From a virus (taxonomy: Duplodnaviria > Heunggongvirae > Uroviricota > Caudoviricetes), in IMG/VR virus record IMGVR_UViG_2909314774_000001: a stretch of 64,000 nt of DNA. One strand, written 5' to 3'. Under the pieces are notes generated by a model. The model did not search any database. It saw nothing but the letters and a program-made list of their open reading frames with translations, and was not told the origin of the DNA. The position numbers and the translations under genes were made by a program. Shown here in pieces: positions 2,594-16,208 of the stretch. Every line of letters starts with the position of its first letter. The first letter of the stretch is position 1.

Positions 2594-3694
2594 TCACACT
2601 GCGCGGAATGCGATTTCGCCAGGTATTACTTCACCTTGCCAATACATTTGGGCAGCAACGCGATCTGCGAGGTCACGATAAATAGCCGTAAATTCGCTAT
2701 CTGGACGACTAATAACGGTTGGTGTTCCGTTATCCAGATCTTCACGAAGAGAGATATGAAGTGGCATTTGGCCTAACAACTGCGTGTTGTATTTCTCGGC
2801 CAGTTTCTGTGCGCCACCGGTGCCAAAAATTGGCTCGTGATGACCGCAGTTACTGCAAATATGCACACTCATGTTTTCGACGATACCCAGTACCGGCACT
2901 TCGACTTTTTCGAACATCACAATGCCTTTCTTCGCATCGATCAGCGCGATGTCTTGCGGCGTAGTTACCACAACCGCACCAGTTACAGGAATGTTCTGCG
3001 CCAGCGTCAACTGAATATCACCAGTGCCCGGCGGCATATCGAGAACGAGATAGTCCAGATCAGGCCATAGAGTTTCCTGCAACATCTGCATCAGCGCCTT
3101 GCTGGCCATCGGTCCACGCCACACCATTGCATTGTCGTCGGTGACCAGATAACCAATAGAGTTGGTTGCCAGGCCATGAGACATGATAGGTGCCATGTGA
3201 GTACCGTCAGGTGAGGTTGGACGTTGGTTTTCCGCGCCCAGCATGGTTGGAATTGATGGACCATAGATATCGGCATCCAAAATACCAACTTTCGCACCTT
3301 CAGCAGCCAACGCCAGTGCCAGGTTCACCGCCGTGGAGGATTTACCCACGCCGCCCTTGCCTGAGCTGACGGCGATAATGTTCTTAACGCCATTAATGCC
3401 TGGTTGGTTTTTGACGCGCTTAAGCGTGGCAATGTTGTACGACAGCTTCCAGTCAATAGCCTTTGCGCCAGTGATACGGAGCAGATCACCACTACATTGC
3501 TCTTTCAGGTCTTCAAAAGGCTTATTCCACACGAAAGGCATGATTAGTTCGACATGCAGTGTGTCATCCATCAACGCAACATGGTGTAACGCTTTAAGCG
3601 TAGTCAGGTTGTGTTTCAGGGTTGGGTGCTGAAAATTAGCCAGCGTACCGGCTACCATTGCTCTCAGGGCATCCGGCGATTTGGACTCGCTCAT
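2594..3694 (-). CDS. apbC: iron-sulfur cluster carrier ATPase ApbC/Mrp
   Basis: 366-aa translation near-identical to E. coli Mrp (SSGKGGVGKSS P-loop, CxxC motif); divergent from metG as in E. coli. Confidence 0.95.
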   Translation of the reverse strand: MSESKSPDALRAMVAGTLANFQHPTLKHNLTTLKALHHVALMDDTLHVELIMPFVWNKPFEDLKEQCSGDLLRITGAKAIDWKLSYNIATLKRVKNQPGINGVKNIIAVSSGKGGVGKSSTAVNLALALAAEGAKVGILDADIYGPSIPTMLGAENQRPTSPDGTHMAPIMSHGLATNSIGYLVTDDNAMVWRGPMASKALMQMLQETLWPDLDYLVLDMPPGTGDIQLTLAQNIPVTGAVVVTTPQDIALIDAKKGIVMFEKVEVPVLGIVENMSVHICSNCGHHEPIFGTGGAQKLAEKYNTQLLGQMPLHISLREDLDNGTPTVISRPDSEFTAIYRDLADRVAAQMYWQGEVIPGEIAFRAV

Positions 3695-8726: not shown

Positions 8727-8810
8727 TATTTATTCAACTCCTGATTTTATCCCCCGTAACACCCCTACGGTCAGCCTTCGGTCCATACAGGGAAAAGGCT
8801 GCATCCCGCT

Positions 8811-8930
8811 ACAGAAACGGCTGGGTTGCCTTCGGGGAACGGCTGGAGGTTTTCAGGGAAACGGTCGAGTTGCCTGTGTGGATTTCGGGAAACGGCTCGA
8901 TGCCGGTTCAGGAACGGTGGCGTACCGGTA
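8811..8930 (+). repeat. five direct repeats with core G(G/A)AACGG(C/T) at roughly 21-32 bp spacing (iteron-like)
   Basis: cagaaacggctgggttgcc / ggggaacggctggagg / cagggaaacggtcgagttgcc / cgggaaacggctcgatgcc / caggaacggtggcg. Confidence 0.6.
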
Positions 8931-11467: not shown

Positions 11468-11796
11468 ATATGGGCGATTTCAAGAAACGCCTGAAGGAAA
11501 GAGTCGAGATGGTCAGAAAGCAAAACGCCTCTTCTGTCATCAGATACGCAAGGCAGTTTAGTCGCAACAACAAATCAGTTGAGGAAAAGATCCTTAGCGT
11601 AATCGGGCGATAATTATTAAGGCCACCAGCATTGGTGGTCTTAAATGACTTTTAATAACCGAAGGTTAGTTTGAAACCTGGCTATCAACTTCCAGAACCT
11701 TTCTTGTGTATTCAGCCTGTATTAACTTCTTTTATGCCTTATCTACACTGCGATAATTACATCAACAAGAAAACAACATGTTTACGCAGTGAGGAT

Positions 11797-12084
11797 ATGC
11801 TCATGACTGATTTCACCATTACCCCTAAAGCACAAAATGTATTTCTTGAATCATGGCTGGACTTGCCGGAAACAGAACAGCAAGAAATGGATCATGTGGA
11901 ATATGACGAGCAGGTAAGCACGCGATTCTTCCACTTTGAGGGCTGCGTTTACGACATTGCCGACTTCATGCGAGATGACCGCTTCCCTGAATGGCACGCA
12001 AGCTATCCACTAAACGCCTTCGCCATGCTGATGATCCGTGTGGATGATTCAGGGGATACCATCGACATCGGTCTGCTCCACTAA
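11797..12084 (+). CDS. small acidic early protein (about 95 aa)
   Basis: class-A palindrome 11767-11783; RBS GTGAGGA; conserved hairpin AGGCCACCAatgcTGGTGGCCT at 12094-12116 downstream. Confidence 0.45.
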   Translation: MLMTDFTITPKAQNVFLESWLDLPETEQQEMDHVEYDEQVSTRFFHFEGCVYDIADFMRDDRFPEWHASYPLNAFAMLMIRVDDSGDTIDIGLLH

Positions 12085-12134
12085 AGAGTAAGGCCACCAA
12101 TGCTGGTGGCCTTAAATGACCATCCTGTTTCCCG

Positions 12135-12210
12135 CAGGCTAAAACACCAACCTCTTACCTCCAGGCAACCGACAAACCCACCTGTTCCCGTCCGGCTACC
12201 GCAACTTTCC
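12135..12210 (+). repeat. second cluster of CAGGCTA/CCGGCTACCG-type direct repeats in a C-rich, G-poor segment
   Basis: gcaggctaaaacaccaacct / ccaggcaaccgacaaacccacct / ccggctaccgcaactttcc. Confidence 0.45.
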
Positions 12211-12287
12211 ACTTTGACGCCTTATTCGTACAACGATAATTAACACCAACAAGAAAACAATTTGTTATTTACGATAAGGAATTAATC

Positions 12288-12770
12288 ATGAATTTTATCG
12301 CTACTGTAAACGCACCCGCACATGGCAATATCGCTGTAACGTTCTCTGACATTGAAAAACGAGTACTTGGTGCATGGCGCGACAATGAGACGGTAGAACT
12401 GTCAGCACAAGAAAAATGCATTATTGCACGCGACATCATTGGCAATCGTCGTTACTCGCGGGTATTTGAGAAAGCGTATGTGGTAAATTCTGGATTCGGA
12501 ACGTTCGTCTTTCCGGTGCGCTCCGGGCGATTCTGCCAGTCCAAGCTGATTGAGTTCGCTACGCAGATTTCTGTCTGGATTAAAACTCAATCGTCGTTCA
12601 AATTTTCCGACGATGAAGCAGTATCGCAGGGGATGCGGATCGCCAACAATGCGATTAAATGCAAAAACATTACGTATACCGCTGGCGTTGACACATGGAA
12701 ACTGTTTTGCGCTAACTTTATGCTGAATGTATACGCAAGCAACCGCATCCACATCCTTGATGGCGTGTAA
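12288..12770 (+). CDS. hypothetical protein (160 aa) flanked by both direct-repeat families
   Basis: class-A palindrome 12254-12268; RBS AAGGAA; followed by hairpin AGGGCC agaaac GGCCCT. Confidence 0.55.
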   Translation: MNFIATVNAPAHGNIAVTFSDIEKRVLGAWRDNETVELSAQEKCIIARDIIGNRRYSRVFEKAYVVNSGFGTFVFPVRSGRFCQSKLIEFATQISVWIKTQSSFKFSDDEAVSQGMRIANNAIKCKNITYTAGVDTWKLFCANFMLNVYASNRIHILDGV

Positions 12771-12780
12771 CTGAGAAGAG

Positions 12781-12905
12781 GGCCAGAAACGGCCCTTTCT
12801 CTATAGCCACCAGCTGCCGCAGGGAAATTTTCAGAAACGGCGAGGAACGCATTCATGAGCCGACGGGAAACGGCCAGGATTTTTTCGGGAAACGGCTGCA
12901 TTCGC
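12781..12905 (+). repeat. second cluster of GAAACGGC direct repeats (four copies)
   Basis: ggccagaaacggccc / cagaaacggcgagg / cgggaaacggccagg / cgggaaacggctgc. Confidence 0.55.
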
Positions 12906-13386
12906 CTTTATATAGAAAAAACATCGGGAAGCTGGTGGAATCCAACCAGCGGTTGTCGGACAGGTGAGCGGGGAAAATTATGATGACTTTCGTCGCCTGA
13001 GACATCCAGATTTCTTTCGTAGCGTAATCACATATGTGATTAAGTGGTGTGATTATGTGAAAAATCACGCGCACATAATACGCGAGCGGATACGGAACAA
13101 AACAAAATGCCGATCCGCGCCGACAATTAAACGCGGATCACATAGCAAGAATAAAAGCCAATGATTAACCATACACCATAACGCAATATAACGCGATTTA
13201 AGCGCGTTAATGCGCTAAGTAATGGGTATGTACTGGTAAGGATATAAAAGCGCGTCTATGGCGTTATTTTGGCGCTTATTTTTATGTTGTTGGAGTGAGT
13301 CAAAGACAATAAAAAAAGCGCCATCATTGGCGCGTTATGGTGGAAGTATTGGAAACGAAAAAAGCGCCCATAGTGGGCGCTCGATT

Positions 13387-13617
13387 TTATTTATGTAAAC
13401 TGATTTCAAATCCCATTTCTACAAACGCTTTTAACATTAAAAATATATCAGCGTCATTCACGTCTGCTTTTTTTCGCTCCTGGTCGCTCAATAAGTCAAT
13501 TTTGCGCGTCGTTTCATCTATAAGCTCGACTGCGCGCCCAGCGTAACCAGCGATCCCAGCGATGCGATTAACAAAATATTCATTGCGCACGTTAACGCCA
13601 GCGATAAGAATAAACAT
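13387..13617 (-). CDS. hypothetical small protein (76 aa)
   Basis: ORF bracketed by two copies of hairpin GCGCCCATAGTGGGCGC (13363-13380 and 13634-13650). Confidence 0.4.
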   Translation of the reverse strand: MFILIAGVNVRNEYFVNRIAGIAGYAGRAVELIDETTRKIDLLSDQERKKADVNDADIFLMLKAFVEMGFEISLHK

Positions 13618-13664
13618 GATTAAGCTCCTTAAAAGCGCCCATAGTGGGCGCCAGATTCCATTAA

Positions 13665-14315
13665 TTACGCTTTGAAAGCATCAGCCAGATAGTTATAGAA
13701 ATCATTTTTAATAAAGCGATATTGCTGCGTACCAGCTTTTGCGCTTCCCATTCCTTTGACTTTCTCAACAAGTCCAAGACGTTCGCAAAGATTGATAAGC
13801 TGGTTGGCTTGAGTGTATCCTGCGTCTAATTTTATTTCGTTGGCTTTTTTCGCTTCATTCATTAAATCGAAAACAGCGCCATTTGTGAACGTCTCGATCT
13901 CGTCGTTAATCATATCGATTAATGCGAATACACGAGATCCGGACATATCAGCGACGGAATAAACACACTTTCCAGCTTTAATGGATTTAACCAGATAAAC
14001 CAGTTTTTCCAGAGAATAACTATTAGTCATTGCATCACGGAAAAATACTTCTGGCGCTTGTTTGCTTGCTTTGATCGCATAGTAGAAAACAGAGCATAAT
14101 TTTTCGTCTTCTACTGCGTTTACGACGTTGTTGATGAAGTAAGCAAGTTTCGTGGTCGCAGCTTGCATGTTTGCTTTGTCTGCTTTTGTGTGCGTACCAT
14201 TTTTATAATGTTCGTTATATGTTTGAGTTGCCAGATCTGCTTTTTCGCGCAGCTCGTCGGATACAATGGCAGCAGCTTCAATGATGGATTTTTTAGAAAT
14301 GATAATGTTAGCCAT
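13665..14315 (-). CDS. hypothetical protein (216 aa) in an AT-rich segment
   Basis: long ORF with RBS-like GGAAAA upstream of the start; visibly lower GC than surrounding genes. Confidence 0.55.
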   Translation of the reverse strand: MANIIISKKSIIEAAAIVSDELREKADLATQTYNEHYKNGTHTKADKANMQAATTKLAYFINNVVNAVEDEKLCSVFYYAIKASKQAPEVFFRDAMTNSYSLEKLVYLVKSIKAGKCVYSVADMSGSRVFALIDMINDEIETFTNGAVFDLMNEAKKANEIKLDAGYTQANQLINLCERLGLVEKVKGMGSAKAGTQQYRFIKNDFYNYLADAFKA

Positions 14316-14554
14316 GATAATTTTCCTTATGTAAATTTAAAATTTATTGTCGTTAGCGTCTTCGCTTTCGACGAGTTCAATTATCGATACGTGAAAAAAG
14401 ATTGCAAGTGTTTTTTTAAAATTTTTTGCAGGGATGAAAGTCCTAGAAATAAAAGCGAGATCGTCGAAGGTGTTCCCTAAATAAATAATCGAATCCGGCT
14501 TTCGACCTTATATATATTTAGGTTATTTGATTTGTAGATATAAAGAAGTGATGT

Positions 14555-14586
14555 GAAAAATAATAACCGGACTTAGCCGGTTATTA
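14555..14586 (-). terminator. intrinsic terminator for the leftward helicase operon (AATAACCGG / CCGGTTATT, T-run on minus strand)
   Basis: stem-loop just past the 14598 stop with an A-run on the plus strand. Confidence 0.6.
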
Positions 14587-14597
14587 ACCTTATAGAT

Positions 14598-14906
14598 TTA
14601 TTGAACAGACTCTACAGCCTTACGATTGGTGTCAAATAGCGCATCAACGAACTGTGCCGATGACTTGCTAGATTCGCAATCCAACATTGCCCGTTCTTCA
14701 TTTGCCACTTTCTTACACAGTTCCACATTCTCACCTATCGCTTTTCCTGCTTTTACGGCTGCCGAAAATTGATACATGCAAACTGATACATTCTGAGACG
14801 TTGAGCACACATCATTCATCAGCGATTGAATGACAGGCTTATAGTCCATTGCATTTGCCGCAACTGAGCAAAGTAAAAATAATGGTGGTAACAATATCGA
14901 TTTCAT
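14598..14906 (-). CDS. secreted/periplasmic Cys-containing small protein (signal-peptide-like N-terminus)
   Basis: MKSILLPPLFLLCSVAANA hydrophobic leader. Confidence 0.55.
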   Translation of the reverse strand: MKSILLPPLFLLCSVAANAMDYKPVIQSLMNDVCSTSQNVSVCMYQFSAAVKAGKAIGENVELCKKVANEERAMLDCESSKSSAQFVDALFDTNRKAVESVQ

Positions 14907-14909
14907 AAC

Positions 14910-15434
14910 TCAAAAAGGCAAAATTCGTTCAACCCAATCGAACAAAACAACTATTTTTCTACCGTTCTCGACACGTAGTGTAACCTGACAAGCATCTGCG
15001 CCTGCTGACACCCCCTCAATTTCACGGCCATCCGCCATGTACACCCTTATAGATTTGTTTGCTTTGTAGGCTTGGTTGCAAATTGCAAAAAAATCGCGGC
15101 GTGATGGCCGATTATCGACATAATCAGGGTGAACTGTTAGTCGACCTTTGAAATCGTGAGCGATACTGTCAACCACACCTGATTCAATTGTACTAATGCG
15201 TTCAAGTGGGAGCCTTATACGATTTTCTTTGTCAAAAGGGGCTGGGCAAAGGTCAACTTTGTTACGAGATGGCATGAGGCCATAAACGTACATGCAAAAC
15301 GCCTGGCCATCTTCGAGAGTGACCCTTACAGGAATTTGTTCTCTGCGCCAGAACATCAGTAGTTTTTCAACGTTAGTGTAATCTCGCGGCCAGAGTTCAG
15401 CTTGGATACCGTAGGTAATATCTTTGGTTGTCAT
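14910..15434 (-). CDS. hypothetical protein (about 175 aa from the internal Met MTTKDITYG)
   Basis: ORF-track frame; start chosen to abut the upstream lipoprotein gene. Confidence 0.45.
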   Translation of the reverse strand: MTTKDITYGIQAELWPRDYTNVEKLLMFWRREQIPVRVTLEDGQAFCMYVYGLMPSRNKVDLCPAPFDKENRIRLPLERISTIESGVVDSIAHDFKGRLTVHPDYVDNRPSRRDFFAICNQAYKANKSIRVYMADGREIEGVSAGADACQVTLRVENGRKIVVLFDWVERILPF

Positions 15435-15438
15435 GTCA

Positions 15439-15861
15439 TCACAGAGTTGTTGGCAGAATGTCGATGTCACCAGAATTGCTGGTGAACACCCTGAATGCTT
15501 TTGTGTCTCCATTCTTCAGAGTCGTTTCTCGCTCTTGACGAGCGGGGTTTAGAGCACATAAACCTGCACCTTCAAGAGATGCACCCACAATTAATTCTCC
15601 GGCATTTAAATGGAAAGTCGCTTTTTCGCCTGTAGCCAGTTTTGCGACAGTTTCGCCGTTGATGAAAATGGAAGCATCACATCCAGCTCCTACAAAACCT
15701 GTGTCTCTCATTACCACCAACGTAGCTGGCGCTGCGCTTTGATACTTGAACACTTTGGCCTGCGGTGCTGGTTTGGCGTCATGGATTGATATTGGGCGTG
15801 ATTGGCACGCGGCAAGCATCAACACTGGTAACGTTAGTAGAGGGAGAAGCGAGTATTTCAT
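15439..15861 (-). CDS. putative lipoprotein (lipobox LMLAAC after a signal peptide)
   Basis: MKYSLLPLLTLPVLMLAACQS: leader plus Cys lipobox. Confidence 0.6.
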   Translation of the reverse strand: MKYSLLPLLTLPVLMLAACQSRPISIHDAKPAPQAKVFKYQSAAPATLVVMRDTGFVGAGCDASIFINGETVAKLATGEKATFHLNAGELIVGASLEGAGLCALNPARQERETTLKNGDTKAFRVFTSNSGDIDILPTTL

Positions 15862-15929
15862 GATAGTTTTAGAACAGAAAGTGAACAGTATGGGAGACTT
15901 CATCTTTGTCTCCCTAATTGATAGCGTGA

Positions 15930-16208
15930 TTATTTTAATCTGCTTAATAGCGTTTCGAGATCTTCCTTTGTCATATTAGAGTTCTCATAGATACGCATGA
16001 TTTTCTCACGAGTCTTAGCGGAAGCCCCGACAGAAGATATAACCTTGTCAAAGTCGGCCATTGTCAATTGTTCCAGAATGGTATTTATGACTTCAGCCTT
16101 AGACATTTTGATATTTTTTTCTTTTAGTTTCACTTGAAACTTTCCAAGTTTGTCATTGGCCTTATCAGACAATGCTACCTGACAGTAAGTTGTTTTCTTT
16201 TCACTCAT
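15930..16208 (-). CDS. hypothetical small protein (92 aa)
   Basis: ORF tightly packed between the helicase and lipoprotein genes. Confidence 0.5.
   Translation of the reverse strand: MSEKKTTYCQVALSDKANDKLGKFQVKLKEKNIKMSKAEVINTILEQLTMADFDKVISSVGASAKTREKIMRIYENSNMTKEDLETLLSRLK

Follow-up and report, generated by a model that had tools for sequence, protein, structure and literature searches.

Two open reading frames on the minus strand of a phage genome, set among repeated GC-rich hairpins in mildly AT-rich DNA, raise the question of whether they form a single accessory unit that was acquired whole. The window that was analysed is the complete stretch of 64,000 nucleotides from IMG/VR record IMGVR_UViG_2909314774_000001, and the original prediction, made from its letters alone, described the pair as an AT-rich, independently acquired cassette insulated by identical hairpins. 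Both reading frames are exactly as it gave them, 13665-14315 (216 aa) and 13387-13617 (76 aa), and its account of their origin is partly supported, or half right: the large gene is core, and the small gene alone is a mobile cassette. We favor, at somewhat better than even confidence, an arrangement in which the locus is one self-contained transcription unit, made up of a core regulator gene and swappable, hairpin-ended small-gene cassettes.

The element in the window is an SSU5-type phage-plasmid, and its nearest relative is Escherichia phage Cyrano (the pLF82 phage-plasmid). Over positions 13000-14600 its identity is 95.6% with phage Cyrano, 92-94% with CMS-2020a and PhiR41_1, and ~83% with Salmonella phage SSU5. 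The published Cyrano repA primer, sought in order to place the plasmid replicon, has no match in the 64-kb window. The SSU5 supergroup includes S. Typhi pHCM2, Klebsiella pKpn-type plasmids and Y. pestis pMT1 (PMC7969092). Phage-plasmids of this type are widespread in clinical Enterobacteriaceae and their regulation is almost unstudied; literature searches turned up no functional studies of the locus. Read in the direction of transcription, the locus comprises the following features.

14561..14586, minus strand: intrinsic terminator of the upstream 102-aa gene; 10-bp stem, TTTTT tail, dG -12.6 kcal/mol, z -4.3; conserved in relatives
14437..14515, minus strand: three conserved upstream boxes, candidate regulator-binding sites, from an alignment of 12 relatives
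14504-14515, minus strand: upstream box ATATATAAGGTC, near-invariant in the alignment
14466-14485, minus strand: upstream box TTTATTTAGGGAACACCTTC, near-invariant in the alignment
14437-14452, minus strand: upstream box TTATTTCTAGGACTTT, near-invariant in the alignment
14380..14407, minus strand: predicted sigma-70-type promoter, TTGCAA-16 nt-GATAAT, a 9/12 match preceded by an A-tract
14316..14372, minus strand: conserved 5' leader and Shine-Dalgarno sequence TAAGGA of the 216-aa gene, from the sequence and an alignment of relatives
13665..14315, minus strand: core gene (ORF) of the 216-aa protein (phrog_1513), modelled as an N-terminal helical bundle and a C-terminal winged helix-turn-helix
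13631..13653, minus strand: hairpin T1, internal, the left copy of a direct repeat; stem-loop 13635-13651, dG -14.1 kcal/mol; position kept in ~85 relatives
13387..13634, minus strand: swappable cassette, ribosome-binding site TTTTAAGGAGCTTAATC and 76-aa ORF (S76a, phrog_1585), dN/dS 0.21
13358..13382, minus strand: hairpin T2, terminal, the right copy of the direct repeat; stem-loop 13364-13380, called on both strands, dG -15.5 kcal/mol, z -3.9
13311..13333, minus strand: predicted backup terminator T3, GCGCCAATGATGGCGC and U7, ~30 nt past T2, dG -10.7 kcal/mol
13111..13140, minus strand: additional terminator-like hairpin in a conserved non-coding region, dG -18.8 kcal/mol, z -3.9

The AT-richness of the segment is real but only modest in the GC profile. 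Its GC content is 0.405, at the 5th percentile among equal-sized windows, against 0.468 for the window as a whole, and the 282-nt spacer upstream of the 216-aa gene is lower still at 0.312.

The 17-nt palindrome GCGCCCATAGTGGGCGC occurs exactly twice in the 64-kb window, at 13364-13380 and 13635-13651; the pair of identical hairpins had thus been seen correctly, with coordinates one base off. At three mismatches or fewer, 5 palindrome matches were observed where shuffles expect 0.10, a number reached in 0/100 shuffles, and at the locus itself no further copies were found at that tolerance. The two copies are part of a perfect 21-mer direct repeat (13360-13380 and 13631-13651) that extends to 35 nt at 86% identity. 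One copy separates the two genes and the second follows the 76-aa gene, so that the hairpins bracket the 76-aa ORF alone and not, as had been proposed, the two-gene unit. Further GC palindromes noted nearby were found again, at 13318-13333 and 13111-13140. Terminator-like sites are in fact concentrated in this part of the genome, with 10 found in 12500-15000 against 2.9 +/- 1.6 expected, and an Rfam search over 11500-16000 at E <= 1 returned no RNA family.

What these hairpins might do in the message depends on what follows their stems. T1 starts 13 nt past the 216-aa stop codon, and its weak U4 tail, UUUUAAGG, merges into the Shine-Dalgarno sequence AAGGAG of the 76-aa gene; T2 starts 6 nt past the 76-aa stop codon and has the U6 tail UUUUUU. 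Both have the stem expected of intrinsic terminators, with 8-9 bp, a 3-nt loop and a position just 3' of a stop codon, but a proper U-tract is found at terminal copies and not at the internal one. The same division is seen among 154 hairpins in relatives, where the mean initial T-run is 5.7 in terminal copies (n=86) versus 2.0 in intercistronic copies (n=68). Since the internal copy lacks this U-tract, T1 would be at most a weak terminator and may act as an attenuator or a 3'-end stabiliser. T2, judged by its stem and tail, is a predicted strong intrinsic terminator and is probably bidirectional; T3 behind it is kept in relatives as ACGCGCCA-N4-TGGCGCGTTTTTT.

At its other end, the operon has as its 5' limit the terminator at 14561-14586 (minus strand), which is distinct from the 17-nt hairpin. 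The three boxes are almost unchanged in the 12 aligned relatives down to 33% protein identity, and parts of the promoter are also kept, the -35 element as CTTGC or CTTGA and the -10 region as ATCGATAAT. The locus has this single promoter, placed ahead of the 216-aa gene; no small ORF of the variable slot has one of its own. The sequence ATATATAAGG was considered as a genome-wide promoter motif and ruled out, since the window contains it just once in exact form.

The 216-aa gene is a constant companion of these elements. A tblastn search places it in 814 PLSDB plasmids; the adjacent helicase is in 823 (~99%), and the counts of gene and helicase nearly agree host by host: Klebsiella 346/346, Escherichia 216/220, Enterobacter 91/92, Yersinia 62/62 and Salmonella 49/49. 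It is found as well in 12/12 phage records that have a close helicase homologue, and the locus occurs in 239 of 5426 complete E. coli genomes (4.4%), always plasmid-borne and in 0 chromosomal places. Synteny is held in homologues at 54% and at 33% identity, the shared order in distant relatives being two ParB_N genes, the helicase, small genes, the 216-aa gene and a convergent block. The original prediction had itself named conserved core homologues in related phages as the finding that would speak against it, and for the 216-aa gene they exist. A search of 1.84 billion proteins gives a narrow family of 23 representatives, and the gene is under purifying selection (dN/dS 0.07). Both proteins fall into PHROGs families of unknown function, phrog_1513 for the 216-aa and phrog_1585 for the 76-aa product; neither has a Pfam or NCBIfam family at E <= 1, and PADLOC gave no match at E <= 1 for the two proteins and the two neighboring ORFs scanned.

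Expression data are available for a lysogen of the nearest relative, and the CYRAN_113 product is identical to the 216-aa protein of the window across residues 18-216, the stretch aligned by tblastn. The LF82 transcriptome, which covers one strain and few conditions, is given as log2(5+FPKM), a scale on which 2.32 is zero FPKM; in LB the values are 2.78 and 2.32 for CYRAN_113 and 2.32 and 2.32 for CYRAN_112 (PMC9928086, S1 Table). Both are low in other conditions, except that CYRAN_113 reaches ~5.6 at 6 h in macrophages, and the authors count neither among their lysogeny-expressed morons, which are at least 5-fold over background (PMC9928086). Expression from a repressed prophage, as a moron would show, is thus not seen for CYRAN_112 or CYRAN_113, and two genes at the detection floor in a lysogen are not lysogeny-expressed accessory genes. 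The ~8-fold rise of the 216-aa homologue at 6 h in macrophages speaks against the reading that we prefer, as the gene may answer host signals, not the lytic program.

These results bear directly on the view that both genes came together by horizontal transfer, as an accessory cassette of moron, defense or toxin type that hairpins insulate. Such a unit would be mildly AT-rich, carry its own promoter and terminators and encode proteins without assigned function, all of which is true here, and the small gene is truly variable. The large gene, however, is in ~99% of the plasmids that have the neighboring core helicase and stays syntenic at 33-54% identity, there is no PADLOC match, both genes are at the lysogen expression floor where listed morons are at least 5-fold above background, and the hairpins fail to bracket the pair. 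We regard this view as highly improbable for the unit, and as largely refuted for the 216-aa gene, which is not an independently acquired accessory since it is core, syntenic, lysogen-silent and without a match to a defense family.

Structure prediction, one of the checks that had been suggested, gave a helical N-domain and a C-terminal winged helix-turn-helix for the 216-aa protein; the AlphaFold2 model of the 76-aa protein, with a pLDDT of 52.7, was uninformative and too poor for a fold search. The C-terminal domain of the larger protein has the topology alpha1-beta1-alpha2-alpha3-beta2-beta3 and can be superposed on solved winged-helix domains (an ArsR/MarR/PadR-like fold). Foldseek searches of the PDB and BFVD gave no full-length match for the model; the matches are to the winged-helix domain only, all with E-values > 0.009, and a profile search of PDB sequences returned nothing at E <= 10. 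The model makes it probable that the 216-aa protein is a family-specific DNA-binding protein, and as a core, lysogeny-silent gene product with deeply conserved cis-elements it becomes a specific candidate for a regulator in the circuitry of the SSU5 group. The promoter is near-consensus yet silent in the plasmid state, which implies that it is repressed or needs an activator, and by their conservation the boxes at 14437-14515 are the obvious candidate sites for this control.

A winged-helix protein could also bind an origin or a centromere, acting on the iteron-like arrays at 12784-12897 and 8790-8897, for example as an initiator of lytic replication. The fold weakly matches TubR and the winged-helix domains of Orc/Cdc6, the iteron-like repeats have a 22/33-nt spacing with position and core sequence kept in distant relatives, and helicase and ParB-like genes adjoin. 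Still, the protein is unrelated in sequence to the Rep, O and ParR families, its link to the iterons is one of proximity only, and the silence of its gene in the replicating plasmid state excludes a role in plasmid maintenance; we consider an origin- or centromere-binding function quite unlikely, and retain the regulator as the preferred reading.

The case of the 76-aa gene is different, and here the idea of a cassette was well founded: the gene belongs to a set of interchangeable cassettes whose limits are marked by the repeated hairpin. Among 87 non-redundant relatives, the slot after T1 holds 0-2 cassettes drawn from two small-protein families of 67 aa and 76 aa, so that the 76-aa ORF is replaced by or combined with a 67-aa ORF. 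At least 8 cassette architectures are present in the 87 loci.

216-aa gene, hairpin, S67, hairpin: 28/87 (SSU5, Klebsiella)
216-aa gene, hairpin, S76a, hairpin: 15/87 (this window, Cyrano)
216-aa gene, hairpin, S67, S76a, hairpin: 14/87 (PhiR41_1)
216-aa gene and hairpin only: 9/87
arrays with a divergent S67v: 7/87
S76b alone: 3/87 (also in Y. pestis, L009)
S76b after S67: 3/87
216-aa gene, hairpin, S76b, hairpin, S76a, hairpin: 2/87
tandem hairpin arrays with a 44-nt period: 2/87 (L113, L147)

S67 and S67v belong to phrog_6145, and S76a and S76b to phrog_1585; the small ORFs and the 216-aa gene are all under purifying selection, with dN/dS of 0.07-0.21. Among the 814 plasmids of the PLSDB set, S67 is found in 517 and S76 in 372, so that the moron-like pattern, presence in some close relatives and absence from others, is seen for the small ORFs and not for the 216-aa gene (814 versus 823). 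The 67-aa cassette protein carries a propagated mis-annotation as a CorA/MIT metal transporter, a label that is corrected here.

The limits of the exchanged DNA are sharp. Against SSU5, the window is homologous over 12741-13381 and 13611-14600, and only 13382-13610, the body of the small ORF, is swapped; against a relative without a cassette (L071), the match stops at 13382 and picks up again at 13631, and the indel is one exact 271-nt unit from hairpin to hairpin. Homology breakpoints therefore coincide with the hairpin and ribosome-binding-site repeats. Identities are also mosaic, some relatives being ~85% identical in the 216-aa gene yet 92-95% in S76a, and the upstream 300 nt alternates between ~81% and ~98% identity inside the E. 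coli clade. Breakpoints and mosaicism of this kind would be expected if the short direct repeats recombine or allow slippage.

The stem of the palindrome is invariant across the main group, even at 62% (L086-L090) and 49% (L113, L147) protein identity, and the central loop alternates at both positions between ACTAT and its reverse complement ATAGT, the inversion occurring even between the otherwise near-identical genomes L003 and L004. Rarer loops also come as reverse-complement pairs, namely ACAAT/ATTGT, and ATCAT with ATGAT inside one genome (L051). In distant relatives the hairpin is kept with paired, helix-preserving changes (L115, L196), or a T3-type hairpin alone is present (L195). Related contigs have 1-3 copies of the 17-mer, all at the 216-aa locus. 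Altogether 104 IMG/VR stretches contain the 17-mer, and 15 of them are without the 216-aa gene in the DNA fetched; 5 of the 15 are cut pieces of SSU5-like contigs, four with part of the 76-aa gene and one (L124) with the T2/T3 flank, and the other 10 have single copies in mostly unrelated, often GC-rich sequence, a few of them terminator-like. The palindrome as a mobile element was rejected, these 10 stray copies being about the chance number by our own rough estimate; REP/BIME-type palindromes were ruled out by the 0 chromosomal places and the plasmid-only occurrence in 239/5426 complete E. coli genomes.

It also speaks against our preferred reading that a plain terminator need not be so conserved, and either a sequence-specific role or homogenization by recombination could explain the stem. 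One could suppose that GCGCCC-N5-GGGCGC is mainly a sequence-specific site, an operator for the winged helix or a hairpin for cassette capture by recombination, with termination secondary. The stem stays invariant in the main group although the protein diverges to 62% and 49%, copy number ranges from 1 to 3 and tandem arrays of 44-nt period occur, loop inversions recur, cassette junctions fall at the palindrome, and the 17-mer is essentially limited to this locus in viral contigs. The palindrome is, however, always oriented and placed as a terminator would be, and the length of its T-tract follows context; distant relatives alter it by paired changes (L115, L196) or keep only the T3-type hairpin (L195); the flanks are without an integrase or a hairpin-specific transposase; and the 21-35-nt direct repeat suffices for RecA-independent slippage. 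We hold such a site to be unlikely, and read the invariance of the stem as selection on structure together with recombinational homogenization rather than as the mark of a protein-binding site. In a bolder version, a dedicated cassette-exchange mechanism would use the 17-nt palindrome as its recognition or hairpin site, an integrase-less mini-integron shuffling anti-defense or host-takeover genes under Aca-like control. It seems to us very doubtful; if true, phage-plasmids of the SSU5 type, among them Y. pestis pMT1 and S. Typhi pHCM2, would capture small effector genes behind a core winged-helix regulator.

For the self-contained transcription unit that we prefer, the following sequence of events may be proposed. 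The sigma-70 promoter and its conserved boxes would drive the core gene for the DNA-binding protein and, behind it, a slot with 0-2 cassettes, each consisting of a ribosome-binding site, a small ORF and the identical GC hairpin. After the last gene the hairpin, with a U5-7 tail, would stop transcription, and a backup terminator lies behind it; the intercistronic hairpin, its U-tract shortened by the next ribosome-binding site, would be leaky, and this leak would give more message for the 216-aa gene than for the small genes. Hairpin, T-tract and ribosome-binding site together make up the 21-35-nt direct repeat, and recombination or replication slippage between its copies could add, delete, duplicate and exchange cassettes among lineages, while the palindrome's own loop would flip. 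The operon is off in the plasmid-prophage state. Once stable lysogeny is left, at induction or in lytic growth, the 216-aa protein would serve as a regulator or DNA-binding factor, with the small proteins as optional modulators or early accessory proteins.

Several known systems resemble parts of this arrangement. The REP hairpins of malE-malF and the hairpins of the puf operon are intercistronic hairpins or attenuators that set differential expression within an operon. Like them, the locus has a stable GC hairpin between cistrons with a poor U-tract, and more upstream than downstream message would be expected; unlike them, it would use the identical sequence a second time, as the strong terminator at the end of the unit, and also as a joint for recombination. 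Phage morons, which Juhala et al. are said to have described in 2000, resemble the locus as autonomous units that carry a promoter and a terminator of their own and have GC below that of the surroundings, but the main gene here is core and lysogen-silent and the variable small ORFs are promoterless. In anti-CRISPR operons with an Aca regulator, a conserved helix-turn-helix regulator accompanies small, fast-turnover genes. A predicted helix-turn-helix regulator shares an operon with such genes here too, and the low expression would fit autorepression; in contrast to Aca, the regulator is upstream, has 216 aa with a large extra domain and no match to an Aca family, and its gene persists where the small genes are absent.

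Integron cassettes offer the likeness of promoterless ORFs, each ended by a palindrome, in a variable array behind a fixed promoter. The 17-nt perfect palindrome differs, however, from the 57-141-nt imperfect attC with its conserved core sites, the array has at most 2-3 units, and the annotation of the flanks in Cyrano, SSU5 and NZ_CP082122 lists no integron integrase. The integron idea was set aside: a paper on integrons in phages mentions SSU5 just in passing, and the palindrome lacks the features of an attC site.

The closest described phenomenon is the modular shuffling mediated by PeSL (promoter-early stem-loop) cassettes of T4-type phages, in which terminator stem-loop repeats flank small genes (Arbiol et al. 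2010, PMC2839356; PMC4122927). In both cases short conserved repeats that would include an effective terminator stem-loop lie beside small genes of unassigned function, and where close relatives differ by the insertion, deletion or replacement of small ORFs, the endpoints fall in the repeats. The repeat here (13615-13651: hairpin, T-tract and Shine-Dalgarno sequence) carries a ribosome-binding site where PeSL carries a strong sigma-70 early promoter; it is present in 1-3 copies at a single locus and not in dozens dispersed over hyperplastic regions; and it belongs to a siphovirus phage-plasmid. It is important to emphasize that the gain, loss and swap of hairpin-ended genes is ordinary phage modular evolution and does not overturn current understanding; the SSU5-type locus would provide a small, clean case of terminator-mediated cassette turnover outside the T4-type phages.

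The 17-nt GC palindrome that follows the 216-aa core gene and its small downstream ORF (GCGCCC-N5-GGGCGC) does not keep a fixed loop orientation among relatives. At position 3614 the loop is inverted between two otherwise near-identical genomes (L003 and L004), and a third genome, L051, carries two copies, at 3665 and 3912, whose rare loops ATCAT and ATGAT are the reverse complements of one another. These inverted and paired loops suggest that hairpin-mediated inversion occurs, together with copy-to-copy conversion. In a divergent branch (49% identity), represented by L147 and L113, 2-3 units stand in tandem behind the 216-aa gene, and no small ORF accompanies these hairpin arrays. Each unit consists of the hairpin plus TTTTTTGTTTCCGCTATAAAGCCACCA.

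L147 and L113, 1498-1602 and 8081-8141, reverse strand: tandem 44-nt units behind the 216-aa gene

The protein of the 67-aa cassette family that occupies the small-ORF slot in phage SSU5 was annotated there as "MIT family metal ion transporter CorA", a label that has since spread to PHROGs but is implausible, because the protein is soluble and has just 67 residues.

L002 (Salmonella phage SSU5), 5123-5326: SSU5_119, 67-aa coiled-coil cassette protein (phrog_6145)

Repeated sequences also lie on both sides of the operon formed by the 216-aa gene and the 76-aa ORF. Two iteron-like arrays, about 4 kb apart, share the repeat unit (A/G)GCCGTTTCCC(G/T)AAAA at a spacing of 22/33 nt, and a "TATAAGG" box (ATATATAAGGTC and variants) is repeated 5' of the operon and adjoining the 4-copy array.

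Window 8790-8897, minus strand: iteron-like direct-repeat array, 5 copies
Window 12784-12897, minus strand: iteron-like direct-repeat array, 4 copies
Window 14504-14515, 14586-14597 and 12895-12915, minus strand: TATAAGG boxes

The 4-copy array lies some 470 nt past the operon terminators, and its position and core sequence are kept in relatives whose 216-aa protein is only 33-62% identical; possible roles for it are those of an origin, a centromere or an array of operators. Checked across the window, the TATAAGG box is no genome-wide motif, and in a distant relative (L195, 4640-4800) three copies lie upstream of the 216-aa homologue.

Two genes lie upstream of the operon.

Window 14910-15512, minus strand: FljA-like gene (Pfam Flag1_repress, E 2.5e-84)
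Window 14598-14906, minus strand: 102-aa ORF (phrog_9536)

The FljA-like product has an additional weak Hfq-like match, and the lysogen expresses its homologue in phage Cyrano, CYRAN_114, at a moderate level. Between this gene and the operon, the 102-aa ORF encodes a product with a hydrophobic, signal-peptide-like N-terminus; at its position Cyrano has no annotated CDS and Klebsiella relatives have a 99-aa gene. The site is another variable slot.

Hairpins with a shared core occur in two viral contigs in which the 216-aa, 67-aa (S67) and 76-aa (S76) genes are absent from the DNA fetched.

L097 2140-2230 and L173 520-610: hairpin pair sharing a CCCATAGTGGG core

The two hairpins, CTGCCCATAGTGGGCAG and GCGCCCATAGTGGGCGC, have this core in common and stand on either side of a TATAAT-like hexamer, directly 5' of an RBS and ATG. 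The arrangement resembles that of PeSL.
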